64,000 bases of DNA from an uncultured Planctomycetia bacterium (GCA_964373805.1 CAYJWF010000004.1:1891-65890); one strand, 5' to 3'. Counted from the first letter of the stretch, positions 3,158 through 64,000 are shown. Made by a program: numbers and translations. The notes: generated by a model from the letters alone, not told the origin.

Positions 3158-4329
3158 CCTTGAAGCAGGACGACCGCGTAGGCGGCCATCGCCTCTTTCG
3201 CACCAATGGGACCTAAACCTTCCATCGTCCGGACCTTCACGTTCACTTGGGATTCCTTAACCTTAAGAAGCCTCGCCACGGAGCTGCGAATCGCCTCTCG
3301 ATGGGGACCTAACCGTGGCTCCTCGGTGATGACCATGAGATCGGCGTTGGAAATTTCAAGTTTCCTGGCTCGAATCAGCCGAAGCGCCTTGGCGATGAAT
3401 CGCTGGCTCGGGGCCCCTTTCCATTTGGAATCGGTATCGGGAAAGTGGCTCCCTAAGTCCCCGGCCCCTGCCGCCCCCAGCATCGCGTCGCAGAGGGCGT
3501 GGAGGAGCACGTCCGCATCGGAGTGACCCAGGAGTCCCTTCTTCGCTGGAATCTTCCTTCCCCCTAAGACGAGCGGCCGGCCCGCGATCAACCGATGAAT
3601 ATCAAACCCAATGCCTACTCGCATATCAAAAGGGGTCTGACCCCTTTTGCCTTTCATCAAGGTTTCCGCCATCAAGAGATCATCCTGAGTGGTCACCTTC
3701 AAATTCCGGGGAGAACCTTCCACGATCCGTACCTTGACCCCCATCGCCTCCACCAAGGCTGCGTCATCCGTTGCGGTAACCCGCCTGATTCTTGCCCGAT
3801 GGTGAGCCGATTCCAACAGATCCCGACGAAACACTTGAGGGGTCTGGATCGCCCAGAGGTGGTTTCGATCCAAGGTTTTGGCCACCCATCCGGCCCTGAC
3901 CTGCTTGATCGTCGGAACCACTGGGATAGCCGCCACGGCCGCTTGCGTCCGTTGGGCGGTCCGGATCGTCTCCATAAGGAGCTCCGATGGGACGAGGGGA
4001 CGAGCCCCATCGTGAACCACCACCCACTCTGCCGATGGAGGAAGCGCCTGCAATCCTCGGAAGACTGAGGCGGTCCGAGAAGCGCCTCCCGGGATGATCT
4101 GAATCACCTTCCGATAGCGGTACTTCTGGACCATCCGTTGGACCGCCGCGACATCGTCCCGATGACTGACCACAACCATCCCATCGATCGGACGAGCCTG
4201 CTCCAAGGCGCTTAAGGTCCAAGACAGCATCGGCCGTCCAGCCAACCGGACGAACGGCTTTCGGACCTTCTTCTTAAAACGTCTGCCCTCTCCAGCAGCT
4301 GGGACAATAGCGACAACCCTAGGTGCCAG
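3145..4329 (-). CDS. ispDF: bifunctional 2-C-methyl-D-erythritol 4-phosphate cytidylyltransferase / 2-C-methyl-D-erythritol 2,4-cyclodiphosphate synthase (IspDF)
   Basis: Tracked ORF starts at a TTG (4245). The same frame upstream encodes the conserved IspD N-terminus VVAIVPAAGEGRRF, right up to an in-frame TAG at 4351-4353. The C-terminal half is IspF (GHSDADVLLHAL...). No ATG/GTG/TTG lies between the TAG and the motif; the start is placed at CTG 4327-4329 by inference. Confidence 0.8.
   Translation of the reverse strand: MAPRVVAIVPAAGEGRRFKKKVRKPFVRLAGRPMLSWTLSALEQARPIDGMVVVSHRDDVAAVQRMVQKYRYRKVIQIIPGGASRTASVFRGLQALPPSAEWVVVHDGARPLVPSELLMETIRTAQRTQAAVAAIPVVPTIKQVRAGWVAKTLDRNHLWAIQTPQVFRRDLLESAHHRARIRRVTATDDAALVEAMGVKVRIVEGSPRNLKVTTQDDLLMAETLMKGKRGQTPFDMRVGIGFDIHRLIAGRPLVLGGRKIPAKKGLLGHSDADVLLHALCDAMLGAAGAGDLGSHFPDTDSKWKGAPSQRFIAKALRLIRARKLEISNADLMVITEEPRLGPHREAIRSSVARLLKVKESQVNVKVRTMEGLGPIGAKEAMAAYAVVLLQGCRS
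3628..3650. repeat. P1 palindrome inside ispDF (IspD-IspF linker)
   Basis: AAAAGGGGTCTGACCCCTTTTGCC; encodes GKRGQTPF. Confidence 0.85.
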
Positions 4330-6915: not shown

Positions 6916-7812
6916 CTAAGGAAACACGAAGTAAAAGAACGCGGTGAAGAAACAGTCGGCGGCGATGATCAGGATAAAGGAAACCACCACCGAAAAGGTG
7001 GTCGAGCGGCCCACCCCCTCAGCGCCGCCCGACGTCTCGAAACCTTCGTAACAGGCAACCGTCGCGATGATCACGCCAAAGACGACCGCCTTGAGGAGCC
7101 CCGTGAACAGATCCTTAAACCTTAAGGCGTCCCACGTCATGTTCATGTAAAGGCTGGAACCAATCCCCAGCTTGTAGACCCCCACGACGTACCCCCCCAG
7201 GATCCCCACGAGGTCCGCGTAGAGCGTCAAGATCGGCAGCATCGTCACCAGGGCCAGAAGCCGTGGGACCGCCAGATACCGGACCGGATCGGTAGCCAAG
7301 GTTTGCAGAGCGTCGATCTGCTCGGTCACCCGCATGGTCCCTACCTCGGCCGAGATGGAGGCCCCCACCCGACCGGCGATGACGAGAGCCGTGAGCACCG
7401 GCCCTAACTCCCGCACCATGGAGAGGGCAACCAAGGCGCCGATGTACAGCTCCGCCGAGATCTTTTGGAGCTGATAAGCCGTCTGAAGGGCCAACACCAT
7501 CCCGGTAAAGAGGGAGGTGAGGAAAACCAGGGGGAAGCTGGCGACCCCGACCCGCTCCATCTGGAGGAGGATGAGTTCCCATGAACGATTCCGAGCCAAC
7601 CGCTTCCAACGCCACGGGAAGGGGAGATCGACGACCCAACTCCTCCAGGGCAGCGCCAGGATCCCTCCCACCGTCTGCCAGAGGAGGACCGCGGAGCCCC
7701 CCAGGTATTCGAAGAAGGCCAGCGACCCTTCCCCTAAGCCCCCCACCAAACGGCGGGTTACCGCTTCCGCGCCTTGGCCGCTAGAATTTCTTTCGATGTT
7801 CCACCCCGACAA
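6916..7812 (-). CDS. mlaE: ABC transporter permease MlaE
   Basis: MlaE/YrbE-type multi-TM permease pattern; position in the mla cluster. Confidence 0.75.
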   Translation of the reverse strand: MSGWNIERNSSGQGAEAVTRRLVGGLGEGSLAFFEYLGGSAVLLWQTVGGILALPWRSWVVDLPFPWRWKRLARNRSWELILLQMERVGVASFPLVFLTSLFTGMVLALQTAYQLQKISAELYIGALVALSMVRELGPVLTALVIAGRVGASISAEVGTMRVTEQIDALQTLATDPVRYLAVPRLLALVTMLPILTLYADLVGILGGYVVGVYKLGIGSSLYMNMTWDALRFKDLFTGLLKAVVFGVIIATVACYEGFETSGGAEGVGRSTTFSVVVSFILIIAADCFFTAFFYFVFP

Positions 7813-9295
7813 ACTCCTCGTCCCGATCCAACCGAACCTGGACCCTTTGCCCGGAAGAAGACAACGGATACGTCAGCTCCAGCTCCTCGCGCGTCACCGA
7901 TTCCGGTTGAACTTCACGATCCACCTCATAAGCGAGGCCCACCGCCATTCGGTCTTCCGCCGTGGAACGGCGCACGCTCAGGCCCGAAACCGAAGGTCTC
8001 TCGCCCGGCACCTCTACAGGCCGCGCGGGAGACTCCACCCCCAGGGGTCCCACGCGCCAGCCTCCCCCAACCCCTAAACTTCTTTCGGTCGAGGAAAGCC
8101 GCACGTTGGAAAGGAAGTCGCTGCGGCCCAACCGTCGAAGATCGACGGTCCCCTCGATGAGCAGCACGCCGCTTGGCTTGGTGATTTGAGAGTTCTGGAT
8201 CTTTAAGATCGGCCCTTCGCCTCTAAAACGCAGCGTCGCCAGGCGGAATCTCTCCCATCCCAAGGACCCTCCTTCGCTGGAAATCTGGCCTTGGCTTTCC
8301 AGTTGACTTAAGGGGCCGGTCAAGGTGACTCGACCATGAATCGGACCGGAAAGGGTCCATCGCTGAGGTCCAGCAAACCAACGGATCCATCTGTCTAAAT
8401 CGGCCCTTTTAAGCTCCAAGTTCAAGTCCACCGGATAGGGTGGCTTTAAACGAATCCGACCATTCAAAGAGGCCTCTTGCCCCAAAAGCTCCGCCTGCAG
8501 GTGAAGATCGGAACGCTCCACCACCCACCGGACCGTCAGCTGTTCAGGAATTTCTTCCTCCTGGCGCGCCCAGATGGTGATCCTTCCCCCGACCCCATGA
8601 GAAGAAACCTCTTTCTTAAGAACCCCTTCTACCCGCCAGGCTCCTTGGAGTTCGGCCTGTTTCAAGCGGATCGCCTCCCGCGAAAGGGACCATTGGCTGA
8701 CGAAATGACTCCTGGGAAAGTGAGCTCCTTCTTCTACGTTTCTGGCTGCGCCAGCGGCCAGTCTAGGAAAGTCCCGCGCCTCAGCGAGGGGCTCCATCCA
8801 TCCTAAAAGGATCGGCTCCTTAACCGTGCCGCTCAACTCCACCATTCCTTTAAAGAACGGATGCTCCAGGGTGAGCCAACCGTCCCACCCGAGCTGCGAT
8901 GAGTTTTCCTTGGCGTCCTGAGCGGTAAGATGCAAGCGGCCCTGCGCTTCAAGAGGGAGGCCGCCCACCGACAGGGATACCCGAGTCACCGTGATAGAGG
9001 TCACGATACCGTCGCGAAAGAACATCTGTGGATTCTCGAAAGCGCTTCGACTGAAGAGTCGCCAAAGCGATCCTTCCATCTGAAGACGTTCAATCGCCAA
9101 AAAGGAGGGTTTTACGGAAACTCCATAAAGGATCAGTTTCTTGGGAGAAAAGGCCAATCGCTGAATGGATACCGGCGCCTTGAAAAGTTGACTTAAACCT
9201 TGGCTCAACCGAACGCGCCCAACCTGAAGGGCCCAGAAGAATCCTCCAGCGCTCACAAGACTCACGCAGAGAAACGCCCCAAAAAACCGTCTCAA
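7781..9295 (-). CDS. membrane-anchored periplasmic protein, possibly AsmA-like; carries an in-frame repeat element
   Basis: N-terminal TM helix then a 480-aa soluble region; no firm family match; contains repeat R1 encoding [12 protein letters not shown]. Confidence 0.4.
   Translation of the reverse strand: MRRFFGAFLCVSLVSAGGFFWALQVGRVRLSQGLSQLFKAPVSIQRLAFSPKKLILYGVSVKPSFLAIERLQMEGSLWRLFSRSAFENPQMFFRDGIVTSITVTRVSLSVGGLPLEAQGRLHLTAQDAKENSSQLGWDGWLTLEHPFFKGMVELSGTVKEPILLGWMEPLAEARDFPRLAAGAARNVEEGAHFPRSHFVSQWSLSREAIRLKQAELQGAWRVEGVLKKEVSSHGVGGRITIWARQEEEIPEQLTVRWVVERSDLHLQAELLGQEASLNGRIRLKPPYPVDLNLELKRADLDRWIRWFAGPQRWTLSGPIHGRVTLTGPLSQLESQGQISSEGGSLGWERFRLATLRFRGEGPILKIQNSQITKPSGVLLIEGTVDLRRLGRSDFLSNVRLSSTERSLGVGGGWRVGPLGVESPARPVEVPGERPSVSGLSVRRSTAEDRMAVGLAYEVDREVQPESVTREELELTYPLSSSGQRVQVRLDRDEEFVGVEHRKKF
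8733..8800. repeat. R1 repeat element, copy in AsmA-like gene
   Basis: TCTACGTTTCTGGCTGCGCCAGCGGCCAGTCTAGGAAAGTCCCGCGCCTCAGCGAGGGG. Confidence 0.8.
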
Positions 9296-11769: not shown

Positions 11770-11893
11770 CCATTTCTAAGAGCTCGATTCCTTCCTTAAT
11801 CGTCAGGACAGCAACCCCATTACTCCAACGTGTCATTCCACCTATAAGGATATCATACCAGAAAAATTGGTTTTAGGGATCGTGGGATGAGGC

Positions 11894-13057
11894 TTAGAGC
11901 GGCTTCGCCAAAGACTTCCAGCTCAGGACGCGGACGAACCCCCTTGTCTGCTCTTCATCTCCTGCGTGAATCAGGAAAGCCGATCTTGTTGTCCGTTTCG
12001 TGAGCCTCCCCCAATAGAAGAGATTCTTCAGAGAGTCAGGGGTGACGGTTTTCCCCGATTGGATCTCCACGGGGATCTCTCTGGATCCTTCTTGAAGGAT
12101 CAGGTCAACCTCATGGCCAGCCTTGTCTCTCCAGAAATACAGGTGAGGGGTTCGCCCTTGGTGCAGCCGGTGTTTGAGTATCTCGCAGACGACGAAGGTT
12201 TCAAAAAGGGCGCCGCGGAGCGGATGGCTTTTCAGGTGAGAAAGATTTTCAATGCCCAATAGGGAGCACGCCAGGCCGGTATCGGTCAGATACAGCTTTG
12301 GGCTCTTGACGATCTGCTTCTTGAAGTTTTGATGGAAGGGAGGAAGCAGGTAAGCCAGAAAGCTGGCCTCCAGGACGCCCAGCCACGCCCTGGCCGTGTT
12401 GTGCGTGATGCCACAGTCGTTGGCCAGATTGCTCAGGTTGAGGATACACCCCGTTCGGCCGGCGCAGAGCTGGAGGAACCGGTGAAAACTGGGGAGGTCG
12501 TGGACGTTCTTGATCTGCCGGACATCCCGCTCCAGATAGGTGCGGATGTAATCCGGGTACCAGTCGGCAGGCCGCAGCCGCTTGTCGTAGATTCTGGGAT
12601 ACAACCCCTGCAACAGGAGTTCTTCCGCAGAGGGCAGTCTCTTTAAAGTGGGAAGGAGCTCTGAGAGTGAGAATGGCATCAACGTCAGGATCCGCACGCG
12701 CCCGGCAAGGGTCTGAGACAGCTTCTCTAGAAGAAGGAAGTTTTGAGAGCCGGTCAGGATAAATAAGCCTTCCCCCTTATGCGTGTCCACGTGGGTCTGA
12801 AGATAAGAAAACAGCTCCGGGGCCCGCTGCGCCTCATCGAGGATGGCGCCTCCCCCGTATTCCTTGAGGAATCCGCGGGGATCCTGGGTAGCGTACGCCA
12901 ACGTATCCCGGTTTTCCAGAGAGACGTAGGCCTTTTGGGGGAACAGGTTTCGGGCCAGTGTGGTTTTCCCGGATTGCCTCGGTCCCAGGATGGCCACCAC
13001 CGGAAACTTTCTGGCCATCTCCACAATCTTCTTCTGCAAGGTCCTGACGACCATCAC
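11894..13057 (-). CDS. AAA+ ATPase of the COG1373/DUF4143 family
   Basis: Walker A GPRQSGKTTL, Walker B ILDEAQ, C-terminal DUF4143-like region. Confidence 0.7.
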   Translation of the reverse strand: MMVVRTLQKKIVEMARKFPVVAILGPRQSGKTTLARNLFPQKAYVSLENRDTLAYATQDPRGFLKEYGGGAILDEAQRAPELFSYLQTHVDTHKGEGLFILTGSQNFLLLEKLSQTLAGRVRILTLMPFSLSELLPTLKRLPSAEELLLQGLYPRIYDKRLRPADWYPDYIRTYLERDVRQIKNVHDLPSFHRFLQLCAGRTGCILNLSNLANDCGITHNTARAWLGVLEASFLAYLLPPFHQNFKKQIVKSPKLYLTDTGLACSLLGIENLSHLKSHPLRGALFETFVVCEILKHRLHQGRTPHLYFWRDKAGHEVDLILQEGSREIPVEIQSGKTVTPDSLKNLFYWGRLTKRTTRSAFLIHAGDEEQTRGFVRVLSWKSLAKPL

Positions 13058-13165
13058 AGGGCCAGGCTACCAGGATATGGATAAATTGTCAATACGATTT
13101 ACAATATATCCATTTTTGTCCGGCGCACCCGTCTCCAGACTTACGCCTGGGACCCTAGACCTTTG

Positions 13166-13216
13166 CGACCCCCCCCCTGATTCGTTTTGCTTCGCAAACC
13201 GAATCAAAACGGTGGG
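13166..13216. repeat. R2 hairpin repeat copy A (C-run / G-run clamped)
   Basis: CCCCCCCCCTGATTCGTTTTGCTTCGCAAACCGAATCAAAACGGTGGGGG; 41-nt core identical to copy B. Confidence 0.8.
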
Positions 13217-13271
13217 GGTGTGCCTTTTCGGGAAGGGTTACAGTCTTAAGTTTACCTGAGGGGCATGCGAG

Positions 13272-13320
13272 AAATGGCGAAAATCTTTTGGCTAACTGTT
13301 CATCACGCCCTAACCGAGGC
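13272..13320. repeat. direct repeat X1 (pairs with X2 at 13972-14020)
   Basis: AAAATCTTTTGGCTAACTGTTCATCACGCCCTAACCGAGG versus AAAATCCATGGCTAACTCTTCATTACGCCCTAACCGAAAAGG. Confidence 0.6.
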
Positions 13321-13384
13321 GGGGCGTTACCAGGGTTGGATAACTCCTGGAGTAGCCAGGAAGTTGGTTAGCCGGATAGTTTCG

Positions 13385-13621
13385 CTAGGCAAGAGCAACT
13401 TCGAGGGGTCTGCGCTTGAGGGCGCTGACCCGGAGGATGGAGAATCCGAGAATGTTGCCTTTCTTATCCACTTTCTCCATCACCTGGTCACTGGCTGTCT
13501 CTCGGAAGTACCCCTTTCGTCTTTCAAAGATGACTTCCAGGTAATCCCCCTCTGGATCGTACCAAAGCTTCACAATCTTGCGTGCCATATCACGGTCCCT
13601 CTTCGAACCTTGTCGGTCCAA
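13385..13621 (-). CDS. DUF2283-family small protein (putative antitoxin)
   Basis: KLWYDPEGDYLEVIF... pattern typical of DUF2283; pairs with the adjacent DUF4258-like gene; true start probably at the internal Met (~13588). Confidence 0.5.
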   Translation of the reverse strand: MDRQGSKRDRDMARKIVKLWYDPEGDYLEVIFERRKGYFRETASDQVMEKVDKKGNILGFSILRVSALKRRPLEVALA

Positions 13622-13884
13622 TAGGCGGTCAATACAAAGGCATCGTCACCTTGAACCTTGACCACCACGCACAGAAACTTGTCCCCTACTTGGGTCCCCA
13701 TGTAGAAACGGTGGTACAACCGCGCGCCGGGATCAGCCAAGGAACGGATGACAATCTGAGGAGCTGCCAATGTCTCGGCGATGGCATCTTCCATTCCCAC
13801 CATTTCTGGGTGTTCTCGTATATGTGCCCACCGTTCCTCCGTAAGACGGATGAGCCGGCCTTCAAAGTCACGCAGGCGCTTCAT
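13570..13884 (-). CDS. DUF4258-like protein (putative toxin of a DUF4258/DUF2283 pair)
   Basis: 104 aa; ...FLCVVVKVQGDDAFVLTAYWTDK... RelE-fold-like pattern; overlaps the partner gene. Confidence 0.45.
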   Translation of the reverse strand: MKRLRDFEGRLIRLTEERWAHIREHPEMVGMEDAIAETLAAPQIVIRSLADPGARLYHRFYMGTQVGDKFLCVVVKVQGDDAFVLTAYWTDKVRRGTVIWHARL

Positions 13885-13971
13885 TGCCTCGGGATGCCGA
13901 CGTTCGGTAAAAGAACCTCCAAGTCATCCATGGCCATGATACCTCTAAGTATAGCCGATGGACACCAGAGA

Positions 13972-14020
13972 GATGCCAAAAATCCATGGCTAACTCTTCA
14001 TTACGCCCTAACCGAAAAGG
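13972..14020. repeat. direct repeat X2
   Basis: See X1; the pair brackets the DUF2283/DUF4258 module just inside R2 copies A and B. Confidence 0.6.
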
Positions 14021-14137
14021 AGGGAATTCGAATCTGTTTAGCTCTTTGCGACAGCGACGAGCGCGCCCGACGGCAATCCATCCGTCATTTCGACGACCGG
14101 AGGGAGGAGAAATCCCGCTTTTGAGATTTCTCGTCGT

Positions 14138-14188
14138 CCCCACTGATTCGTTTTGCTTCGCAAACCGAATCAAAACGGTGGGGACTCC
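14138..14188. repeat. R2 hairpin repeat copy B (direct repeat of A)
   Basis: CCCCACTGATTCGTTTTGCTTCGCAAACCGAATCAAAACGGTGGGGAC. Confidence 0.8.
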
Positions 14189-14264
14189 TCGAAATGACAA
14201 TTTTCTCTCAAACCGCTAAACATCTATTCATCTATTTAGAGGGTATCCCCGGGCCCCTGCGGAC

Positions 14265-15257
14265 TTACGCCTGGGACCCTATGCCGAGGGACTGCTCCAA
14301 GCCTGCCGCAAGGATCGAGACCAAGTCCGGCGAAACTCCGAAACCCTTCAAGATCGCATCCATCGAGAACAGCTCCTGCGCGAAGTAAAGACGTAGAACA
14401 TCCGCCGCGACCCGAACCGGATAAACATGTTCCAGCGGACCCAAATAAGTAACTCGGGAAAGACCATGGATTTTCTGGAAGGCGGTTGTTACCGCATCCG
14501 GGGATCGCTCCGGAACGTAATGAATCCGCCGATTCTCACCGACAAGTCCTTCGGCCAACTCCGATTCCCCCAGCAGAACCAGCCGCCCGGCAAACCGATC
14601 CAGCCTCCGGAGAACCTGGACCAAATCAGCATCTAACGTAGCGGCATCCAGAACAACCGCCTGAATCCCCTCGACGCTTGCCTCCGCCATCGCAACCGCC
14701 ATCGCAATCCCCCGATCCCCTTCCTCTACGTTTCTGGCTGCGTTAGCGGCCAGTCCAGGAAAGTGCCGCGCATCAGCGCGGCCTTCCTCCAGCCCAGAGG
14801 GATTACTTTCTCCCGTGGTACCTGGTTTCGCCTCCCGCTCTGACCCTGAGAAATTTCTTAACAATCGAGGAAGGAATCCCATCACCTTACCAGGAATAGC
14901 CCCCTCCCCACCCCGCCAGCGGGAGATCGTCTCCCGACTCACCGGCTTCCCGCCGTTGTACCCTGCACCTGCCAGCGCCTGAGCCATCCCTTCCTGCGTC
15001 AACCCCAGCCAATCCATCACCTGGCCAAACTCTGTATCACCAGCGACTTCCGAATCCGCTGCATCCTCCTCCAGCCCGGCGAAGGCAGCGGAGGAGCCTC
15101 TGGACCCCCCTGGAAAAGCCGCCTCCAGCTCAGAGCTGGCGGCACTTTCCAGGCCAGCCTGGGCACGCAGCGCAAGGGCAACGGAAGGCCGAACAAGCGT
15201 TAGAGCCAAGAAAAGCCCCAACGAGCTTCGCCAACGGTCCATTCGTTCTCTTCTCAT
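14265..15257 (-). CDS. secreted hypothetical protein of the GLEE-motif family, with embedded repeat and an HTH-like segment
   Basis: Signal-peptide-like N-terminus; several (A/S)GLE(E/Q) motifs; C-terminal ...ILAAGLEQSLGIGSQA; segment GLTQEGMAQALAGAGYNGGKPVSRETISRW resembles an HTH; carries repeat R1. Confidence 0.45.
   Translation of the reverse strand: MRRERMDRWRSSLGLFLALTLVRPSVALALRAQAGLESAASSELEAAFPGGSRGSSAAFAGLEEDAADSEVAGDTEFGQVMDWLGLTQEGMAQALAGAGYNGGKPVSRETISRWRGGEGAIPGKVMGFLPRLLRNFSGSEREAKPGTTGESNPSGLEEGRADARHFPGLAANAARNVEEGDRGIAMAVAMAEASVEGIQAVVLDAATLDADLVQVLRRLDRFAGRLVLLGESELAEGLVGENRRIHYVPERSPDAVTTAFQKIHGLSRVTYLGPLEHVYPVRVAADVLRLYFAQELFSMDAILKGFGVSPDLVSILAAGLEQSLGIGSQA
14712..14800. 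repeat. R1 repeat element, longest copy, in GLEE-family gene
   Basis: CTCTACGTTTCTGGCTGCGTTAGCGGCCAGTCCAGGAAAGTGCCGCGCATCAGCGCGGCCTTCCTCCAG; includes hairpin CCGCGC-ATCA-GCGCGG. Confidence 0.8.
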
Positions 15258-15409
15258 AGGCAGACCATCGAATACGTTTGAGTTTACCTGAAGAATTGGG
15301 AAAGCGCAAGATTCCTGACTGTCTATCGTTACGACTTACTCCTGGTGGGCTTGGCGCTGCGAAAGCTGTTGACACCCATTTCGTCACTTAGGACAATAAA
15401 TGACGACAC

Positions 15410-16117
15410 ATGCCTTTCATCTTGTTGGTCATTTTTGGTCTGGCCGGTTGCGCCACAAAGGCTGGTCCAGCCCCCACTGCGGGATTCGTGGCGGCGGCTC
15501 GGCTTACCCAACCGACGGGCCTTCCCTTTCACAAGGCCTGGCAGAAACCGGAATTCGACTGGGGTCAGTACGGAACCATTTCGGTCAGCCCCGTCAACAT
15601 CGATTACCTTCCCCAGATGGACTGGTGGAAAAAGTTGGAACGGGGTCAAGGCTTTCAAGCCGATGCCAAGAAGCTGGCCGAATACACGCGTCAGACCTTT
15701 GAAGAGGCGTTCCGCGAAGATCCGAACCAACGCTTTCAGGTAGTCGATGCGCCTCAAACCGATACCCTGATTCTGGAGATCGCCCTGGTGGAGATCGTCC
15801 CCAGCAAGATCATGTTAAACACCTTAGGCTACGCCCCCTTTGTCGGCAGCGCCTTTAAGCTGATCCGAAACACCAAGTCCAAAAGCTCCGTGGCCTTCGA
15901 GGCCCGGTTCCGAGACGCCCAAACCGGCGAGGTCGTGGCCCAATTCGCCGACCGGGAGTTCGAGAAGATGTCGCCGGTGAATGTCAAGGATGTCACCTGG
16001 TACGGCCATGCCGAGAGCATCCTCTGCGAATGGGCCGACCAGTTCGTCCGGATGGTGAACCGAAAAGAAGGGGAACAGATCCCCGACTCCAAACCGTTCC
16101 ACCTGAAGCCCTGGTAA
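15410..16117 (+). CDS. lipoprotein, DUF3313-like
   Basis: Lipobox LAGCAT after a short signal peptide; 235 aa; one of very few plus-strand genes in the first 35 kb. Confidence 0.5.
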   Translation: MPFILLVIFGLAGCATKAGPAPTAGFVAAARLTQPTGLPFHKAWQKPEFDWGQYGTISVSPVNIDYLPQMDWWKKLERGQGFQADAKKLAEYTRQTFEEAFREDPNQRFQVVDAPQTDTLILEIALVEIVPSKIMLNTLGYAPFVGSAFKLIRNTKSKSSVAFEARFRDAQTGEVVAQFADREFEKMSPVNVKDVTWYGHAESILCEWADQFVRMVNRKEGEQIPDSKPFHLKPW

Positions 16118-16132
16118 GCAGGTTGTTTGCCC

Positions 16133-16185
16133 AGCCCCCCCCCCCCAAGCTTCGCTTTGCGAAGCAAAACGCGGGGGGCCAGCCG
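16133..16185. repeat. R2 hairpin repeat copy C, between convergent genes (possible bidirectional terminator)
   Basis: CCCCCCCCCCCCCAAGCTTCGCTTTGCGAAGCAAAACGCGGGGGG between the lipoprotein gene (+) and mcsB (-). Confidence 0.6.
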
Positions 16186-16186
16186 A

Positions 16187-17230
16187 TTAGAGGGTTTCTC
16201 GCAGGAGTTTGGCGCGGCGGGCGTCCCGTTCGGAAGGGTTTAAGCCGCGGCCCTCCAGCTTCTGAAGATGGGCCGGCTGGGTCTGGATGAAGAGGCGGTT
16301 CACCAGTCCCCGCTCGAGATTGTTCATTAAACCCAGATCGATACCGAGACGCACCAAAGACAAAAGCTCGACCGTCTCGTTGGAGGTGATAAGGTGGGCG
16401 GATTTCAGCGTCCCCAACGCCCGCCAGATCCGATCCTCGAGAGCCTGACGGCTTTGGGTCAGGAGCGCCCGACGGGCCGCCTCCTCCTGCTCGATCACCT
16501 GTTTGATCAACCTTCCCAAGTTGTCCAGGATCTCCTCCTCGGAGACGCCGAGGCTCACCTGGTTGGACAACTGGAAGAGGTTGCCGGAGGCCTCGGTCCC
16601 TTCCCCGTAAAGGCCGCGCGCCGTCAATCCCAATTTGGAAATCGCATGGAGAACCCGGTTGATCTGCTTGGTCATCACGAGACAGGGTATGTGCAGCATA
16701 CAGGAAGCTCGCATCCCGGTTCCTACGTTGGTGGGGCAGGCCGTCAGATACCCCCACTGGGGAGAAAAGGCGTAGGCGAGATGCCCCTCCAACTGGGCAT
16801 CGATCTGACTCAACACCACCCAGGCCTCGGGGAGATTGAACCCCGACTGCAACACTTGAAGCCGCAGGTGATCCTCTTCATTGATCATGAGGGCCAAGAT
16901 CTCCCGGTCGCTCACCACGACCGCCTTTTCTCCGGAGGGGGACGCATGCTCGGGACTGATCAGGTGCCGCTCCGTGAGGAAGAGACGGTCCAGCTCCGTC
17001 AGTTCCGATAGGGCCAAGAGGAGCGACCCTTTCAAGTAGGCGCAAGTTCCCACCGCCTCCTCGATCCGGGCCAAGATTTCGACCCGCCGTTTCTTGCCGG
17101 CCCAGTGAGGAAATGGGGTGTCGCTCAAATTCCTCGCCAGCCGGATCCGGGAGGACATCACGATCTCTCCCTTGGGGCCGGTTCCCCGGAGCCATTCCCC
17201 GGTTTGGTGGACCAGATCGTCAAGGGTCAT
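16187..17230 (-). CDS. mcsB: protein arginine kinase McsB
   Basis: ATP:guanido phosphotransferase catalytic-domain signature (CPTNVGTGMRAS), 347 aa. Confidence 0.85.
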   Translation of the reverse strand: MTLDDLVHQTGEWLRGTGPKGEIVMSSRIRLARNLSDTPFPHWAGKKRRVEILARIEEAVGTCAYLKGSLLLALSELTELDRLFLTERHLISPEHASPSGEKAVVVSDREILALMINEEDHLRLQVLQSGFNLPEAWVVLSQIDAQLEGHLAYAFSPQWGYLTACPTNVGTGMRASCMLHIPCLVMTKQINRVLHAISKLGLTARGLYGEGTEASGNLFQLSNQVSLGVSEEEILDNLGRLIKQVIEQEEAARRALLTQSRQALEDRIWRALGTLKSAHLITSNETVELLSLVRLGIDLGLMNNLERGLVNRLFIQTQPAHLQKLEGRGLNPSERDARRAKLLRETL

Positions 17231-17359: not shown

Positions 17360-17974
17360 TCATCTTTTAGGTCCCTTGCCTTTCACCCTAGATTCTTCAC
17401 CCTTCACTGCCTTTGCCTTTTCCTCCACGGCTCGAACCCGATCCCGAAGACGGGCCGCCTCCTCAAAGGCCTCCGCGGCGACCGCCTTCTTGAGGTTCTC
17501 CTTAAGCCGCGCCAGATCTGTCTCTTCCCCTATGCTTTTAGCGGCATCAGCAGCCCGTCCAGAAAAGTGCCGCGCATCAGCGCGGCCTTCACTTTTCTTG
17601 GCCGCCTTCGGCTGCGAAACGGAAGGACCCTTTCCCACATGTTGGGTGGAACCGTGGATCCGCTTTAACAGGGGAACCAGGTACGGCTCAAACGTCTCGT
17701 AACAGTTCCCGCAGCCAAGCCGACCAACCTTGCGAAACCCTTCGTAAGTCATTCCACACCTGGGGCAGGAAAGCTTGGTTCGCTCGGTCGACTCTCCTTT
17801 AAGCCCGAAGTCGGCGAGGCCGGCCAAAAGGCCTGCTAACCCGAACTCCTGCCCTGCCGCAGTTCCTTTCTCGTGCGCGCAGCTCTCGCAGAGATGGAGC
17901 TCGCGGGTCTGGTCGTCAATGATCTCGGTCAGATGAACCGTCGCCTCGTTTTGTCCACACAGGTCACAGGTCAC
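17360..17974 (-). CDS. mcsA: McsA, activator of protein arginine kinase (zinc-finger / UVR domain)
   Basis: CxxC pairs (CDLCG...CESC; CPRCG...CGNC) and a C-terminal UVR motif (AVAAEAFEEAARLRDRV); carries a partial R1 repeat. Confidence 0.75.
   Translation of the reverse strand: MTCDLCGQNEATVHLTEIIDDQTRELHLCESCAHEKGTAAGQEFGLAGLLAGLADFGLKGESTERTKLSCPRCGMTYEGFRKVGRLGCGNCYETFEPYLVPLLKRIHGSTQHVGKGPSVSQPKAAKKSEGRADARHFSGRAADAAKSIGEETDLARLKENLKKAVAAEAFEEAARLRDRVRAVEEKAKAVKGEESRVKGKGPKR
17533..17600. repeat. R1 repeat element, partial copy (3' half), in mcsA
   Basis: ...CCAGAAAAGTGCCGCGCATCAGCGCGGCCTTCAC; the 33-nt core is identical to the 14712 copy. Confidence 0.75.
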
Positions 17975-17984
17975 AAGCTTTCCT

Positions 17985-18012
17985 CAAAAAGGTACCAGGT
18001 ACCATTTTAAAA
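17985..18012 (-). terminator. putative rho-independent terminator of ilvE (GGTAC-CTG-GTACC hairpin plus U-run)
   Basis: Minus-strand RNA reads ...AAAAUGGUACCUGGUACCUUUUUGAG directly after the ilvE stop. Confidence 0.5.
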
Positions 18013-18017
18013 CCCCA

Positions 18018-18036
18018 ACGGGGTCAGACCCCATCA
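18018..18036. repeat. P1 palindrome, intergenic (ilvE-mcsA)
   Basis: CAACGGGGTCAGACCCCATC. Confidence 0.8.
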
Positions 18037-23679: not shown

Positions 23680-23687
23680 ACCCTTTA

Positions 23688-23730
23688 GATGGTACCAGGT
23701 ACCTTTCTAAAATGGTACCTGATACCATTT
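23688..23730. repeat. P2 twin hairpins GGTACCAGGTACC + GGTACCTGATACC (lnt 3' end / lysS upstream)
   Basis: GATGGTACCAGGTACCTTTCTAAAATGGTACCTGATACCATTTTA. Confidence 0.8.
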
Positions 23731-23732
23731 TA
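23706..23732 (-). terminator. putative rho-independent terminator of lnt
   Basis: Minus-strand RNA ...AAAAUGGUAUCAGGUACCAUUUUAGAAAGG just after the lnt stop. Confidence 0.45.
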
Positions 23733-25178
23733 CGGCCTTCCTCGATGCAAAGATAGGGAATCCACCCCGGATTCAAAGCGAGGAACTGAGGAGATCCGCC
23801 GCCCGGCCGGATCGATGAAGCCGGACCACCCGGTGTTGGCGGCGCGAACCACCCAAACCCGGTTTTCAATCGCACGGAACACGCAGGCCTGCAGATGCTG
23901 AAGCGAGGCAGCCGACCGATGAAACCAGGCGTCGTTGGTGATGACCAGGAGCCACCGGGCCCCTTCCCGAACAAAACGTCGAGACAAATCTGGAAAGAGA
24001 TCCTCGAAGCAGATGAGCACACTGAAGGGAAGGACGTCGTGGGTCTTGAGTCTTGAGTCTTCAGTAAAAGGCTGCCGAAAAGTAGCCGGTTGGAAAACGG
24101 TGAATCGACTTCCGGGGGAGAAATTCCCCATTAAAACGAACCGGCGTAGCCATCCAAAAAAGAACTCGAGGGGGAGGTATTCCCCGAAAGGGACCAGATG
24201 AACCTTGTCGTAACGTTCCACGAGATTCCCTTGGGGGTTTAAAAGGCAAGCGCTGTTAAACATCCTTTCGGTACCTGATACCGTTTCAGTAACCGGTGCC
24301 CCCACCAGTAAAGGAGTGTCCGTGGCTTGCGCCAATTTCTGGAGCCGTTCGAAGATCTCGGGGTCCTCCAAGTATCCAGGTACCGCCGTCTCCGGCCAGA
24401 CGATGAGGTCCGGACGGGATTGAGCGGCTTGACCCGTTAACGTTTCGTAGCGATGCCAGATCTCCTCTTGGAAAACCTCATCCCACTTCTCGGTCTGCGG
24501 GATGTTGCCCTGCACCACCGCAACCCTGAAAGACAGTCGTGGGTCGTGGGTCGTGGGTCGCGAGTAAACCTCAAGCTGGTGAATGCGAAAGGAGCCGTAG
24601 GCCAGCGCAGCAAGCAAACAGGCGCCTGCCAACGCTATAGCGGATAGTCCTTTCCTATACGCTGTACGCTGGACGCTATACGCTAACCAAAGGGCCACGT
24701 TGACCAGAACCACGAGAAAAGAGACCCCGTAGACACCGGTCAAATCGGCGATCTGAATGACCGGAATCCAATTCCACTGGGTGTGAGCGATCAGGTTCCA
24801 TCCGAAGCCGGTCAACCAGGTGTTGCGAAGATACTCCAGAAGAACCCACGCCGCCGGCAAAGTGAGAAGGGGTGTACGGTGTACGGTGTGCGGCGTACGG
24901 CGAAGACCACTCACCATTCTCTGGGCGAGCCAGCCCCAGATCCCAAAATACAGAGCCAGGTATCCGATCAGTAAAACCGTCCCGGGAATCGTCACGTATC
25001 CCACCCACCAGATCGTCCCAGCAAAGAAGAGGATCCCGATAAGATAGCTTTGTAGGAAGGCCTTTCTTGGGGAACTTTTCTCCAGCGCAAGCAGCCAAGG
25101 CAGATAGGCCACCCACGCTAGCCACCCCAAATCAAAAGGCGGGAAACTTAAGACGAAAAGAAGGGCAGAGACAGCCAA
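23730..25178 (-). CDS. lnt: apolipoprotein N-acyltransferase
   Basis: N-terminal multi-TM region plus C-terminal CN-hydrolase domain (CFEDLFP); carries three in-frame heptamer tandem arrays and one GGTACCTGATACC palindrome. Confidence 0.85.
   Translation of the reverse strand: MAVSALLFVLSFPPFDLGWLAWVAYLPWLLALEKSSPRKAFLQSYLIGILFFAGTIWWVGYVTIPGTVLLIGYLALYFGIWGWLAQRMVSGLRRTPHTVHRTPLLTLPAAWVLLEYLRNTWLTGFGWNLIAHTQWNWIPVIQIADLTGVYGVSFLVVLVNVALWLAYSVQRTAYRKGLSAIALAGACLLAALAYGSFRIHQLEVYSRPTTHDPRLSFRVAVVQGNIPQTEKWDEVFQEEIWHRYETLTGQAAQSRPDLIVWPETAVPGYLEDPEIFERLQKLAQATDTPLLVGAPVTETVSGTERMFNSACLLNPQGNLVERYDKVHLVPFGEYLPLEFFFGWLRRFVLMGNFSPGSRFTVFQPATFRQPFTEDSRLKTHDVLPFSVLICFEDLFPDLSRRFVREGARWLLVITNDAWFHRSAASLQHLQACVFRAIENRVWVVRAANTGWSGFIDPAGRRISSVPRFESGVDSLSLHRGRP
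24036..24900. repeat. four separate heptamer tandem arrays inside lnt
   Basis: (GTCTTGA)x2.4 near 24044; (GTCGTGG)x3.4 near 24529; (AGCGTMY)x4 near 24640-24690; (GTGTACG)x4 near 24866. All are kept in frame (encode SRLKT, PTTHDPR, AYSVQRTAYRK, RTPHTVHRTP). Confidence 0.7.
24268..24284. repeat. P2 single hairpin GGTACCTGATACC inside lnt
   Basis: In frame; encodes ...ETVSGTER... Confidence 0.7.
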
Positions 25179-25618: not shown

Positions 25619-28606
25619 TCATGCACCATGACATCGTTTGTATTTCCTGCCACTGCCGCAGTAACAGGGATCGTTCCTTCCCACCTTGGGATGTTCCCGT
25701 CGAAATGGGTGGGAGCTCTCCCGCGCTTCGGCCATCGGACCGGCTCCCACTCCCGGAACAAACGGTTCGTCGGTCCCTTCACGAAACGATTCGGGGTTTA
25801 TCAACGAAGGCGTCGGAGTCGCCGCCTTCGGGGCTTCTGGATGAAGGAACTGTGTCGGCTCCAAAACCCGAGGCCTCGTCTCGGTCCGAACCGCTTGGAT
25901 CTTGAAGATAAGCTCCACGATCTCTTGTCGGACCGATTCCACCATCCGGGTGAACATCTGGTACGCCTCGTGCTGATACTCGACCAACGGATCCTGCTGG
26001 CCGTAGACCCGATAGCCGATCCCTTCCCGCAGGTGGTCCATGGCGTAGAGATGATCCTTCCACTTGGTGTCGATGACCTGAAGCATTACCCACTGCTCCA
26101 GCCGCCGCATCGACCCTTCCCCCAATACCGATTCTCGGGCCTCGTAGGCCTGATGGGCGGCGGTGAGGAGGCTCTGCGCCAGATCTTCTCTTCCTATACG
26201 TTTCTGGCTGCGCCAGCGGCCAGTCGAGGAAAGTCCCGCATCAGCGGGGCTCCCCAACTTCGCGAAGTCGGGGATCGCCACCGAAAACCGGCCTTGGATC
26301 GCCTCGGACAATCCGGAGAGATTCCACTCCTCCGGATCTTGATGAGACAGCGCATAAAGATCCAACAATCCCTGGATCGATTCCTCCACCATCTCGAGGA
26401 TCTTAGGCTTCAACTCTTTACCCTCCAAGACCGCCCGTCGCTCCCGGTAGATCACCTCCCGCTGGCGGTTCATCACGTTGTCGTACTCCAAGAGACGTTT
26501 CCGAATCTCGAAGTTGTGCGTCTCCACCCTCTTCTGGGCCGTCTCGATCGCCCTGGAGAGCCACGGGTGTTCGATCGCCTCCCCTTCGGGGATGGCCGCC
26601 TTGGTCCACTCGAGAAGTCGGTTCTCTCCGAAGATGCGGATCAAGTCGTCGTCCAGGGAAAGGTAGAATCGGCTAGAGCCAGGATCCCCTTGTCGGCCGG
26701 AGCGCCCGCGAAGCTGGTTATCGATCCGGCGGGACTCGTGCCGCTCGGTGCCGAGGACGTGCAGACCCTTCAAGCCTACCACCTGGGCATGTTCCGCCTC
26801 CACTTGGGTCTGCACCTTCGGTTCGATCTCCTTCAAAAGCTCGGCCTCGACTTCCTGTGAAAATTCAGGGACCATCTCCGCCGGAGGCGGGCCCTGCGCT
26901 TGCCCGCCCTCATTTTGGCGGGGGGACCCTCCCTGAGCGAGCTGGTCCTTTCGGCGTTTCAGCTCCGCGGCGATGAGGAATTGGGGATTCCCTCCCAAAA
27001 GGATATCGGTCCCCCGCCCCGCCATGTTGGTGGCGATGGTCACCGCCTTGAATCGCCCGGCCTGAGCGACGATCTGGGCCTCCTGCTCGTGGTATCGGGC
27101 GTTGAGGACGTGGTGCGGGATCTGGCGGCGTTTCAGAAGCTCGCTTAACCGTTCCGACTTCTCAATGGAAACGGTGCCCACCAGGACCGGCCGGCCTTCC
27201 CCGTGCAGCTGGGTGATCTCCTCTTCGATGGCTTGGAACTTTTCCCGTTCGGTCTTGTAGACCACATCCGCGTAGTTGGTTCGAATCAAAGTCCGGTTGG
27301 GGGGGACGGTGACCACCTCCAGACGATAGATCTGGTGGAACTCGGCCGCTTCGGTGGAGGCGGTGCCGGTCATCCCTGCCAGCTTATCGTACATGCGAAA
27401 GTAATTCTGGAAGGTGACCGTGGCCAAGGTCTGGTTTTCCCGTTCGATCCGAACCCCCTCCTTGGCCTCGATCGCCTGATGGAGCCCGTCCGACCAGCGA
27501 CGACCCGGCATGAGCCGGCCGGTAAATTCGTCGACGATCACCACCTGGCCGTCCTTGACCATGTAGTCGACGTCCCGCCGGTATAAGGTGTGGGCCCGGA
27601 GGGCCTGGTTGATGTGATGAACGAGGGTGATGTTGGTGTCCTCGTAGAGGTTGCCCACCTGGAGAAGCCCCTCGGCCTTCTTGACACCCTCCTCGGTTAA
27701 GATCGCCGAGTGGGCCTTCTCATCCACGGAGTAGTCCGCGCCCTTCGCCAGTTTCGGAACGATCCGATCGATCTTGAAATAAAGCTCGGTCGACTCCTCA
27801 GCCGGCCCGGAGATGATGAGGGGCGTTCTCGCCTCATCGATCAAGATCGAGTCGACCTCATCCACGATGGAATACGACAATCCCCTCTGGACGCATTCCT
27901 CCACGGAAACCACCATGTTGTCCCGAAGATAATCAAAGCCGAACTCGTTGTTCGTCCCGTAGGTGACGTCGCATGCGTAAGCGGCCTTACGATCCGAGGC
28001 ACCCATCTCGTGTTGAATCGCCCCGACGGTTAACCCTAAGCTTTCGTAGATCGGTCCCATCCAGTTCCGATCCCGTTTGGCGAGGTAGTCGTTCACCGTC
28101 ACCAGATGGACTCCGCGCCCCAAGAGGCCGTTTAAAAAGACGGCCAGGGTGGCCACCAGGGTCTTGCCCTCACCGGTAGCCATCTCGGCAATCTTTCCCT
28201 GATGGAGAACCATTCCTCCGATCAGCTGCACGTCGAAATGGCGCATGTTCACCGTCCGACGGGCCGCCTCGCGAACCAAGGCGAAGGCCTCTGGGAGAAT
28301 CTCCTCCATCGCCCGATTCTCGATCTTTAAGCGACGCTTCCGTTCCCCCTTCAGTGCGTCTTCGTCGTTGGGATCGATGGAATCGCCCAGTGGGACGGTG
28401 CCATCGGAATCGATTCCGCCTCCGAGTTGTGCGATCCGGGCCTTCAGACGTTGACGCAACGCCTCGGCCTTTTCCTTTAATTGGGAATCGCTTACATCCT
28501 TCACCGTCGGCTCCAGGGCGCTGATCCTTGCCACAACAGGCATCAGCCGCTTCAAGAACCGCTCGTTCTGCGAGCCGACCAGTTTATTGAGGAACCAGTT
28601 CAACAT
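25619..28606 (-). CDS. secA: preprotein translocase ATPase SecA
   Basis: DEAD-like motor motifs and C-terminal zinc-binding [14 protein letters not shown]; 995 aa; carries an in-frame R1 repeat in a variable C-terminal region. Confidence 0.95.
26196..26265. repeat. R1 repeat element (RPE-like), copy in secA
   Basis: CTATACGTTTCTGGCTGCGCCAGCGGCCAGTCGAGGAAAGTCCCGCATCAGCGGGG...; same element at 8733-8800, 14712-14800 and partially at 17533-17600. Confidence 0.8.
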
Positions 28607-32451: not shown

Positions 32452-32955
32452 TTAAATAAAACCTTCTTCTTTGAGGAGGCGGCGCTTGGCGGCGAGGCCC
32501 CCTTTGGCGGAGTACCCCCCTAAGGTCCCATCACTGGCGATCCCGCTTCGCGGGATTCTCCTTAAACGGTGCACCTTTCGGTGCACGAAAAACTTAGAGG
32601 AAACGACCCGGTGGCAGGGGATCTGAGGCGCCCAGCGGTTTCGTTTCAAGGCCTGCCCCACCGCCCGAGCCGCTTTCGGCTGGCCGATCTGTCTGGCCAC
32701 CCAGGCATAAGTTCGCACCTGCCCCTTGGGAATCTTCAGGATCGCCTCGTATACCTTCCGTTGAAACGGGGTACACTTCTTCCACCACTCCTGCCGATCG
32801 ATCCCATCTCGAATGGGGTCGAAGGGTCGAATCACTACAAGGGGCAGATCCCCACGGGTGATCATCATCGGCTGCCTGTGTCTTGCCACTTCATCCATTA
32901 CCCTATCGAAGTTCCTCTCAGTGAACCTTTCTGATATCTTCTTCACTTTTATCAC
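32452..32955 (-). CDS. ogt: methylated-DNA-protein-cysteine methyltransferase (MGMT/Ogt-like), with a 23-aa insertion in the active-site loop
   Basis: Conserved MGMT C-domain (TPFQRKVYEAI...TYAWVA...PCHRVV ... DGTLGGY). PCHRVV and DGTLGGY are separated by 23 extra residues encoded by two GAA(A)-loop hairpins in the DNA. Confidence 0.7.
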   Translation of the reverse strand: MIKVKKISERFTERNFDRVMDEVARHRQPMMITRGDLPLVVIRPFDPIRDGIDRQEWWKKCTPFQRKVYEAILKIPKGQVRTYAWVARQIGQPKAARAVGQALKRNRWAPQIPCHRVVSSKFFVHRKVHRLRRIPRSGIASDGTLGGYSAKGGLAAKRRLLKEEGFI

Positions 32956-41727: not shown

Positions 41728-41992
41728 GCTTCTTCTGACCCCCCACGCAGAGGCGGATCTCCTTCGCCTATCCACCGACCTGCGGCAAAGGTTAAAGGAA
41801 GACGTCCTGCGCCTCACTCAGGCCCCAATCCCATTTCGACAACTGAAGAAGCTCCGAAGCTTCAACCCTCCCATTTGGCAACTCACCTCAGGCCGTTTCC
41901 GGATTCTCTATCGTCGAGAAGAAGGGAGGCTGCTGATTCTCCGAGTGGTCGCTAAGCCGGACCAAAAAGATCTCTTCCGCTCTCTGCGCTAA
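41702..41992 (+). CDS. RelE/ParE-family toxin
   Basis: 96 aa; ...RFRILYRREEGRLLILRVVAKPDQKD... typical RelE/ParE C-terminus. Confidence 0.75.
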   Translation: MSEGARPLELLLTPHAEADLLRLSTDLRQRLKEDVLRLTQAPIPFRQLKKLRSFNPPIWQLTSGRFRILYRREEGRLLILRVVAKPDQKDLFRSLR

Positions 41993-49937: not shown

Positions 49938-50008
49938 TGGGGCTGTAGCGTAAAGGGAGCGCATCTCCATGGCATGGAGGAGGTGAGGGTTCGATTCCCT
50001 CCAGCTCC
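49938..50008 (+). tRNA. tRNA-Ala (anticodon GGC)
   Basis: Cloverleaf folded by hand: acceptor GGGGCTG/CAGCTCC with G3:U70, anticodon loop ATGGCAT, T-arm GAGGG-TTCGATT-CCCTC; coordinates +/-1. Confidence 0.7.
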
Positions 50009-50029
50009 AACAATTTCCATTCAAATACT

Positions 50030-50113
50030 TGGGGATGTGCTGGAATTGGCAGACAGGGGAGTCTCAAAAACTCCTGGGCGCAAGCCCGTGGGGGTTCAAG
50101 TCCCTCCATCCCC
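50030..50113 (+). tRNA. tRNA-Leu (anticodon CAA), type II with long variable arm
   Basis: Acceptor GGGGATG/CATCCCC, D-arm CTG-GAATTGGCAGA-CAG, anticodon stem GGAGT/ACTCC with loop CTCAAAA, variable arm TGGGCGCAAGCCCGT, T-loop TTCAAGT; coordinates +/-1. Confidence 0.7.
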
Positions 50114-50151
50114 ACTCAAATTTCTCCATCCCTCATTTGGGAGGGCTCTTG

Positions 50152-60104: not shown

Positions 60105-60160
60105 CTATCCCCCACGTTTTGTTTCGCTTCGCGAACCAAAACGAAACTTGGGGGACCCTT
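60105..60160. repeat. R2 hairpin repeat copy E
   Basis: CCCCCACGTTTTGTTTCGCTTCGCGAACCAAAACGAAACTTGGGGGACCC. Confidence 0.7.
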
Positions 60161-63587: not shown

Positions 63588-63799
63588 TTTTTCGGTGATG
63601 ACCGGGGCTAGCTGTCTGGATTGTTCATTTCGCCATAGAAATGTCCTGTTAGTAACAGGTTACCTGCTCCCGCAGGAAAATTCAAGGCCCCACAAGCCGC
63701 AAGGAAATTTTCCTCACTTTTACCTCCCCATAGGCCATACTTGATGTGAAGACCTCGAAAAAGGCACGGCCACATTCAAGGCCACGCAAAGCCACGGAT

Positions 63800-63845
63800 C
63801 TTTTGGTGCCAGGCACCTTTTAAAGATGGGTGCCTGGCACCAAAA
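63800..63845. repeat. P2 twin hairpins GGTGCCAGGCACC + GGTGCCTGGCACC upstream of tpsA
   Basis: TTTTGGTGCCAGGCACCTTTTAAAGATGGGTGCCTGGCACCAAAAAAG. Confidence 0.8.
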
Positions 63846-64000
63846 AAGAGAGCCGGGCTGCCGAGGTGCAGAAGATTTTGCGTCACGGCAACCCGGCGTT
63901 TTTATTTTCCTGGTTTCCTTCGGCCTTTCGTAAAAGGTGAGAACGGATTAGGATGGAAGGGATAACCTTAAGATGACGATGCAGCGAGTTAATCCTTTGC

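Follow-up and report, generated by a model that had tools for sequence, protein, structure and literature searches.

Does the sequence between 14712 and 14800 belong to the protein that it encodes, or to a DNA element that has come to lie within the gene? The window analysed here (the whole stretch of DNA, 64,000 nt) contains a 330-aa ORF at 14265-15257 on the minus strand, whose translation includes ...ESNPSGLEEGRADARHFPGLAANAARNVEEGDRG... and over a wider stretch reads ...ESNPSGLEEGRADARHFPGLAANAARNVEEGDRGIAMAV.... Positions 14712-14800 of the same strand code PSGLEEGRADARHFPGLAANAARNVEEG. The initial annotation had presented this segment as the longest copy of an interspersed repeat, R1, about 85 nt in length and with two hairpin modules, and had raised the possibility that some GLEE motifs of the repeat-rich host protein derive from fragments of it. 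Re-translation of both ORFs returned the sequences claimed for 14712-14800 and for the copy in McsA. We consider that the feature is probably a small interspersed repeat, a REP/RPE-like selfish DNA lying in frame in the interdomain linker of an Omnitrophota GLEE protein. The window was assigned to an Omnitrophota MAG because the closest relatives of its SecA (up to 73% identity) carry the names Candidatus Omnitrophica or Omnitrophota.

Copies and structure of R1

Four direct-repeat members of R1 were located in the window, at 8722-8789, 14714-14781, 17518-17585 and 26184-26251. Pairwise identity among the four copies was 70-86%; 14714-14781 and 8722-8789 were 87% identical over 68 nt. An nhmmer profile built from these very four copies scored them at E=1e-23 to 1e-25 (E=6e-25 for the host copy, which was 81-86% identical to the others) and gave nothing further below E=0.01 in the whole window. 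For an 82-nt R1 pattern with 3 mismatches allowed, the number of chance matches expected was zero. The description of R1 as an interspersed element with two hairpin modules was thus borne out, as a four-copy family in which both hairpins folded. The copies and the host gene are as follows.

8727-8789, minus strand: R1 copy in the 504-aa ORF 7781-9295 (p504), the ORF directly after clpC
14265-15257, minus strand: host gene, 330 aa, with a signal-peptide-like N-terminus, an HTH-like middle and a Rossmann-like C-terminal domain (about residues 195-330)
14719-14781, minus strand: R1 unit of the host gene, 63 nt, 21 codons, product (G)RADARHFPGLAANAARNVEE(G)
17523-17585, minus strand: R1 copy in the McsA linker (...GRADARHFSGRAADAAKSIGE...), the most diverged copy, with hairpin 2 decayed
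26189-26249, minus strand: R1 copy in SecA, shortened to 61 nt by a 2-nt deletion and located within a variable loop of the helical-wing region
32541-32603, plus strand: R1b, a diverged relative of R1 in MGMT, in the opposite orientation, 63 nt, 21 aa

The McsA ORF (17360-17974, minus strand) reads ...KKSEGRADARHFSGRAADAAKSIGEE..., in which the R1 copy codes SEGRADARHFSGRAADAAKS, and the NCBIfam match to McsA is interrupted around the repeat. The arm coding EGRADARHF, which is hairpin 1, is common to the host and McsA copies as had been claimed, with 27 nt identical. At the nucleotide level the SecA copy was 83-84% identical to the host and p504 copies and 70% identical to that of McsA; its 2-nt deletion lies in hairpin 1 and puts the downstream part in another reading frame. 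R1b was matched by nhmmer at 32546-32621 (E=0.018) within the ORF of an O6-methylguanine methyltransferase (MGMT), a DNA-repair enzyme. It has the architecture of R1 and runs opposite to its host gene. The MGMT ORF itself (32452-32955, minus strand) has a fused N-terminus of Phd/YefM-like type, similar to the antitoxin of contig L002 (BLASTP E=3e-10), and relatives carry phd, PIN and mgmt as separate genes.

A scan of 185,579 species genomes yielded one further copy, at 7252-7334 of CAYJQV010000018.1 (L001), a Planctomycetia-labelled MAG. This copy was 81% identical to those of the window and scored E=1e-17 with a profile from the window copies alone. It fills the gap that separates a DEAD-box helicase gene, which ends at its stop codon just before the copy, from typA, which starts with GTG; the AAGGAGG located 8 nt ahead of this GTG is provided by the tail of the copy. 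The six copies in all (four R1, R1b and L001) underlie what is said below of ends, target site and copy number. Five related Omnitrophota contigs, about 84 kb together, contained no R1, pattern scans of metagenome contigs gave 0 matches, and blastn against plasmids gave none. Since the related contigs and the metagenome scans were without R1, the family is lineage-restricted. The L001 copy lies in a genome assigned to another phylum, and the closest Omnitrophota relatives are without R1, a distribution that might reflect patchy loss, mis-binning or horizontal transfer. No Rfam family matched R1 in the window at its gathering score, and 14600-14900 gave chance-level matches only (E about 0.8-0.9).

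Three of the R1 copies code similar peptides (ARxFxxLAAxAARNVEE), and most differences that set the host copy apart from that of p504 are non-synonymous. That R1 is repeated as DNA and is not a protein motif follows from the frame shift in the SecA copy, the intergenic position of the L001 copy and the inverted orientation of R1b. The unit comprises about 63 nt (21 codons), with two unlike GC-rich hairpins, a CTTTCC spacer and a tail, AAACGTAGAGGAAG. In the host gene its parts, and the codons that precede it, are located as follows.

14782-14795, minus strand: host GLEE(G) codons, GGGCTGGAGGAAGG; aGLEE is kept here in homologues without R1
14766-14781, minus strand: hairpin 1, CCGCGC-TGAT-GCGCGG, 6-bp stem and 4-nt loop
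14734-14753, minus strand: hairpin 2, CTGGCCGC-TAAC-GCAGCCAG, 8-bp stem and 4-nt loop
14719-14733, minus strand: 3' tail, AAACGTAGAGGAAGG, resembling a stop codon and a Shine-Dalgarno site

The two hairpins of the host copy are separated by CACTTTCCTGGA. Hairpin 1 can become longer when the 5' purine run pairs with CTTTCC; every copy has this hairpin, with stems that have changed to CCCTCGC/GCGCGGG, to CCCGC/GCGGG and, in R1b, to TCCCGC/GCGGGA. One position of hairpin 2 is mismatched (C.A) on the gene strand; on the plus strand it forms a G.T wobble, which gives a perfect 8-bp stem. Accordingly the host copy folded with z = -3.4 on the plus strand and -1.9 on the minus strand, and all five R1 copies folded better on the complementary strand (z -1.4 to -3.4 versus +0.2 to -2.3). 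Stability relative to shuffled controls was modest and clear in some copies only (z +0.2 to -3.5). The tail, which reads TAG + AGGAAGG, is kept in the host, p504 and SecA copies and in R1b, and is more diverged in McsA. R1b is laid out as TCCCGC-TTC-GCGGGA, then GTGCACC-TTTC-GGTGCAC and a tail, GAAAAACTTAGAGGAAA, in exactly 63 nt. There were no terminal inverted repeats: the ends of R1, CCGCGCTGAT... and ...GTAGAGGAAGG, are not complementary, and folding paired the internal hairpins only.

Each R1 copy has only one stop-free sense frame, and the first core base is at codon position 3 in 4/4 genes. The same entry phase and the similar peptides of the four intragenic copies follow from a length of 3n and a single open phase, which are the expected residue of selection against gene disruption. 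A role as terminator was rejected for R1, as neither hairpin is followed by a T-run, and a CRISPR-like array was rejected on the irregular spacing and the position of all copies within genes.

Other palindromes in the window are of different kinds. A second, intergenic repeat family consists of a 46-nt nested palindrome, CCCCACTGATTCGTTTTGCTTCGCAAACCGAATCAAAACGGTGGGG, with 13172-13217 and 14138-14183 being 98% identical and related copies at 16136-16186, 40623-40668 and 60109-60154; the copy just downstream of the host gene may be a terminator. Short gene-end palindromes of the types GGGGTCAGACCCC (2123-2152, 3622-3651, 18006-18032 and 47790-47834) and GGTACCAGGTACC/GGTGCCAGGCACC (17982-18012, 23682-23735, 33392-33437 and 63801-63847) are probably families of terminator hairpins. 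A c-di-GMP-I riboswitch was scored at 63753-63865 (36.6 bits, just over the gathering score), and two tRNA genes (49939-50114) are followed by an ORF with a LAGLIDADG-like domain (50029-50895).

Insertion in the host gene and the limits of the element

The host protein belongs to a rare family. An exhaustive search of 1.84 billion cluster representatives found 18 relatives, one of them annotated as Ca. Omnitrophica, and the part common to them is a C-terminal domain, about 135-150 aa long. Neither Pfam nor NCBIfam had a match for the host, 504-aa or 1135-aa protein. An AlphaFold model (AF2, 13 sequences) showed an alpha/beta Rossmann-like C-terminal domain with pLDDT >90 from about residue 200, and the R1 peptide (residues 159-179, pLDDT 43-67) was placed where a disordered linker ends and the helix entering the domain begins. 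In the PDB, Foldseek found no counterpart of this model at E<=0.001; its best match, a weak Rossmann-like one, had E=2.4e-3. The gene lies in a 4.4-kb island (11770-16190) that separates mcsB from clpC, which are adjacent in relatives (L003 and L005). Besides the GLEE host gene, the island carries genes for a DUF3313 lipoprotein, an AAA_14/DUF4143 ATPase and a DUF2283 protein that has a small ORF as its partner. The second GLEE gene of the window (41989-45396) also adjoins an AAA_14/DUF4143 ATPase gene (45522-46826); the GLEE family as collected here comprises 14265-15257, 41989-45396 and the database proteins P0122-P0138.

When the C-terminal domain was aligned with ten homologues, seven had (A/T)GLEE and two AG[TA]EE, followed by the first helix within 1-6 residues. 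The 21 residues GRADARHFPGLAANAARNVEE between GLEE and the domain were present in the window protein only and were missing from 10/10 homologues. Linker length differs by a few residues among the homologues, which puts the insert at 21-24 aa. The proposal that the host copy is the longest was not confirmed, its insert being 21 aa and at most about 24 aa.

Comparable insertions were seen in the other genes. The SecA insert of about 19-21 aa was missing from the 28 closest SecA proteins. Other Omnitrophota SecA proteins (P0003, P0016, P0006 and P0019-P0025) have lineage-specific inserts of their own elsewhere in the protein, 26, 31 and about 84 aa long and without resemblance to the R1 peptide. 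In MGMT, 21 residues (SSKFFVHRKVHRLRRIPRSGI) start two residues past the PCHRVV active-site motif and are missing from 4 orthologues; the DNA alignment has a clean 63-nt gap without duplication or microhomology of at least 3 nt, and this is the only exact empty site. Two McsA orthologues have linkers shorter by 13-21 aa than that of the window protein. For the p504 copy no empty site was available, as the gene after clpC in L003 has an N-terminus without similarity to the 504-aa protein. An assembly artefact was ruled out, the ORFs running on in frame into conserved domains on both sides. Comparison with homologues thus shows the R1 and R1b copies as lineage-specific in-frame insertions in five unrelated genes.

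The limits of the unit were drawn from the same comparisons. An octamer, GAGGAAGG, occurs at 14782-14789 (the ..EEG of GLEEG) and again at 14719-14726 (the 3' end of R1), 63 nt apart. Since GLEE is found in homologues without R1 and the tail is kept across copies, the 5' GLEE codons belong to the host and the unit is about 63 nt long instead of 85. Similarity between copies spans only about 63-70 nt, and the empty site of R1b is 63 nt. The PSGLEE codons (14784-14800) are accordingly part of the host gene and not of R1, and the 'GLEE...EEG' extension of R1 is a junction repeat and not element sequence. The 5' flanks of the other copies are purine runs like the tail, with 5/8, 5/8, 3/8 and 2/8 matches; over five copies, the flanks agree with the R1 3' octamer at 23/40 positions, counted on the alignment. 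A direct repeat of 8 nt is seen at the host copy, of 2-5/8 elsewhere, and none at the exact R1b empty site. Over six junctions only, the 5' flanks are GGAR-like and the 3' flanks are GATC (host, McsA and SecA) or AGCTC (p504 and L001). Bases of the 3' flank in SecA and McsA fall in codons that are conserved in orthologues, which for these six junctions would point to target preference or microhomology and not to element sequence.

The host was repeat-rich at the level of the amino-acid motif, GLE[EQS] occurring 4x (GLES, GLEE, GLEE and GLEQ at residues 35, 61, 155 and 319), but DNA self-matches were only 13-25 nt long. In the 1135-aa protein (41989-45396), GLEE occurs five times, GLEQ once and GLE in two further places. 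The 12 GLE sites of both genes use varied synonymous codons (GGC/GGG/GGT for Gly; CTG/CTA/TTA/TTG for Leu), which is the pattern that a motif kept at the protein level should show. At the N-terminus the two proteins are alike (BLASTP E=3e-4), with a signal-peptide-like stretch ahead of xGLEE in both. In database homologues without R1, [AST]GLEE occurs up to 7x, usually just past the N-terminus, before the C-terminal domain and in a C-terminal ending of the form ..aGLEqalgLGreA.

Smith-Waterman comparison of R1 with 41989-45396 and 14265-14700 gave scores at or below the codon-shuffled mean, so that of the further fragments anticipated in the two genes none was found in these regions. One marginal inverted match was obtained in the remainder of the host gene.

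15139-15171, plus strand: possible inverted R1-like fragment, 25/33 nt with an exact 12-mer (GGAAAGTGCCGC), over the AGLESAA codons

Its score was equalled by 1/500 shuffles with the host copy and by 5/500 with the consensus (about 0.04 when corrected for 4.3 kb), and its nhmmer value was E=1.6 window-wide. The match is probably due to chance, because alignment with the paralogue shows no gain in length there. The derivation of GLEE motifs from R1 fragments was thus not upheld: homologues without R1 have the motif, its codons vary, and the nucleotide-level relation on which the idea had been made to depend is essentially absent. [AST]GLEE is a protein-level motif that recurs in a rare Omnitrophota family, and R1 appears to have landed beside one such motif. 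It is a genuine, uncharacterised family signature, and R1-encoded peptides should not be annotated as conserved motifs.

Proposed origin and movement of R1

The data above show a repeat family of DNA-level nature with hairpins and a single open phase, inserted relative to homologues. From these properties we infer that R1 is, or was, a mobile and non-autonomous element. Copies would land at many places, and those within genes would persist only where a stop-free peptide is added at a tolerant site; in the host gene, one would have settled immediately after an existing, family-conserved GLEE(G) motif. R1 may have moved, with a preference for GGAAG-like sites, by way of a single-strand, hairpin-recognising transposase of the HUH/Y1 type (REP/RAYT or IS200/IS605-like), a tentative suggestion based on hairpins without inverted repeats and on the duplication-free R1b site. 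Microhomology-guided copying with this site preference may be suggested just as tentatively and fits equally, because of the purine repeats at the junctions. Transposase genes (Y1, TnpA, TnpB or RAYT) were not found among the ten non-syntenic ORFs scanned in the 64-kb window.

Could R1 have a function or an origin other than that of a selfish repeat? It might be a functional RNA or DNA structure (an intra-operon mRNA stabiliser, a processing site, a translational coupling device or an antisense-RNA motif) that is normally intergenic, with the intragenic copies being captured or secondary. Such a role would suit the L001 copy, which lies exactly between stop and start and gives the Shine-Dalgarno site, the TAG + AGGAAGG of the tail, the kept architecture of R1 and R1b with their different stems, and the G.T wobbles that favour the strand antisense to the genes; REPs, moreover, are often thought to work as RNA (PMC3733652). 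We regard it as unlikely, however, since L001 is a single intergenic example and 5/5 window copies are within ORFs of unrelated genes, no T-runs follow the hairpins and R1 has no Rfam family. Marginally less probable still is a spread of R1 by ectopic recombination or gene conversion seeded by GGAAG/GAGGAAGG microhomology, without an element-specific transposase. The 8/8 direct repeat at the host junction, the 23/40 flank matches to the 3' octamer in five copies, a GAAGA microhomology at the SecA 3' junction and the lack of a transposase among the scanned ORFs are in line with this explanation, but the exact MGMT empty site has no microhomology of at least 3 nt, the junctions are few and purine-rich composition raises the number of chance matches.

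An origin at the protein level, in which the shared sequence is a selected module or GLEE motifs and R1 descend from a common source, is hardly credible. The similar peptides of three copies and the EEG coded by the R1 tail beside GLEEG agree with it. The frame-shifted, intergenic and inverted copies speak against it, as do the presence of GLEE in homologues without R1, the varied synonymous codons and the lack of significant R1 fragments in the GLEE genes bar one marginal match.

The selfish-repeat reading can be carried further, to a doubtful but possible proposal. R1 and R1b may form an active, frame-neutral family of Omnitrophota mobile elements, with a 63-nt (3n) unit, one open phase and GGAAG (Glu-Glu-Gly or Shine-Dalgarno-like) as its preferred site, that routinely decorates essential proteins (SecA, McsA and, near the catalytic cysteine, MGMT) and has crossed into a Planctomycetia-labelled genome. 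If this were true, R1 would be an independent 'RPE-like' system, with hairpins and tags unlike those of the known REP super-families and possibly with a new mobilising enzyme.

Comparison with known palindromic elements

R1 is a new family of a kind already known, the selfish in-frame palindromic repeat; a full-text literature search found no published reports of their presence in Omnitrophota. The palindromic elements of Rickettsia (RPE; Ogata et al. 2000, outlined in PMC10969869) are selfish and lie in frame in many unrelated, often essential genes, with each family coding a conserved peptide. The earliest RPEs on record, from Rickettsia species, are given there as about 150 bp in length. 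R1 is like the RPEs in its in-frame position in unrelated ORFs and its conserved peptide. It is set apart from them by length (63 nt versus about 150 bp) and host, and sequence relatedness is not expected. Classical MITEs are small, non-coding and interspersed, and are sometimes fused in frame to host ORFs (PMC10969869). R1 lacks terminal inverted repeats and is therefore not a MITE; nor does it show a consistent target-site duplication.

The GTAG/CGTC REP dimers (Di Nocera et al. 2013, PMC3733652) are a closer match to the behaviour of R1 than the RPEs are. They are intragenic and reach their highest numbers in R. conorii (RPE-4/RPE-6) and in Opitutus terrae, which belongs to the PVC superphylum; they code 20-30 aa, probably in loops or linkers, and DNA-repair genes are often struck (PMC3733652). 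Like them, R1 consists of paired short GC-rich stem-loops inside unrelated ORFs, to which it adds about 21 residues. The REPs of this group have stems of 5-13 bp with G.T pairs, a terminal TAG that can serve neighbouring genes, and an unpaired GTAG/CGTC tag that abuts the stem and is kept in >90% of members (PMC3733652). The R1 hairpins are REP stem-loops in this sense, with a stem of 5-13 bp and a short loop. Its tag is not that of a REP: GTAG is found 4 nt 3' of hairpin 2 (stem-AAAC-GTAG), in reversed polarity with respect to 5'-GTAG-stem, and CGTC is absent. The six copies read GTAG, GTAG, ATAG, GTAT, GTAA and TTAG at this position, so that the tag is intact in 2/6. The hairpins of R1 are unlike each other, whereas REP dimers are two copies of one REP. 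The phylum, Omnitrophota, is new relative to REP dimers, and no RAYT gene was present among the scanned window ORFs.

REPINs are formed by two inverted copies of the same REP (Bertels & Rainey 2011, PMC3337134). For REPIN/RAYT elements, which are non-autonomous and defined by hairpins without terminal inverted repeats, single-strand movement that duplicates little or none of the target is assumed (PMC3337134). R1 differs from REPINs in that its hairpins are not two inverted copies of one REP. Elements derived from IS200/IS605 are likewise defined by hairpins, which lie subterminally at both ends, have no terminal inverted repeats, insert beside a short, specific target and are thought to move single-stranded with little or no target duplication. 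The clean 63-nt insertion of R1b fits movement of the REPIN and the IS200/IS605 types, and together with the architecture of R1 it is compatible, over six junctions only, with IS200/IS605-derived hairpin elements.

The five intragenic 21-codon copies in 64 kb, three of them in SecA, McsA and MGMT, extend the phenomenon of the in-frame palindromic repeat to another PVC-related phylum, and the empty-site comparisons available here are suited to questions of target choice and protein tolerance.
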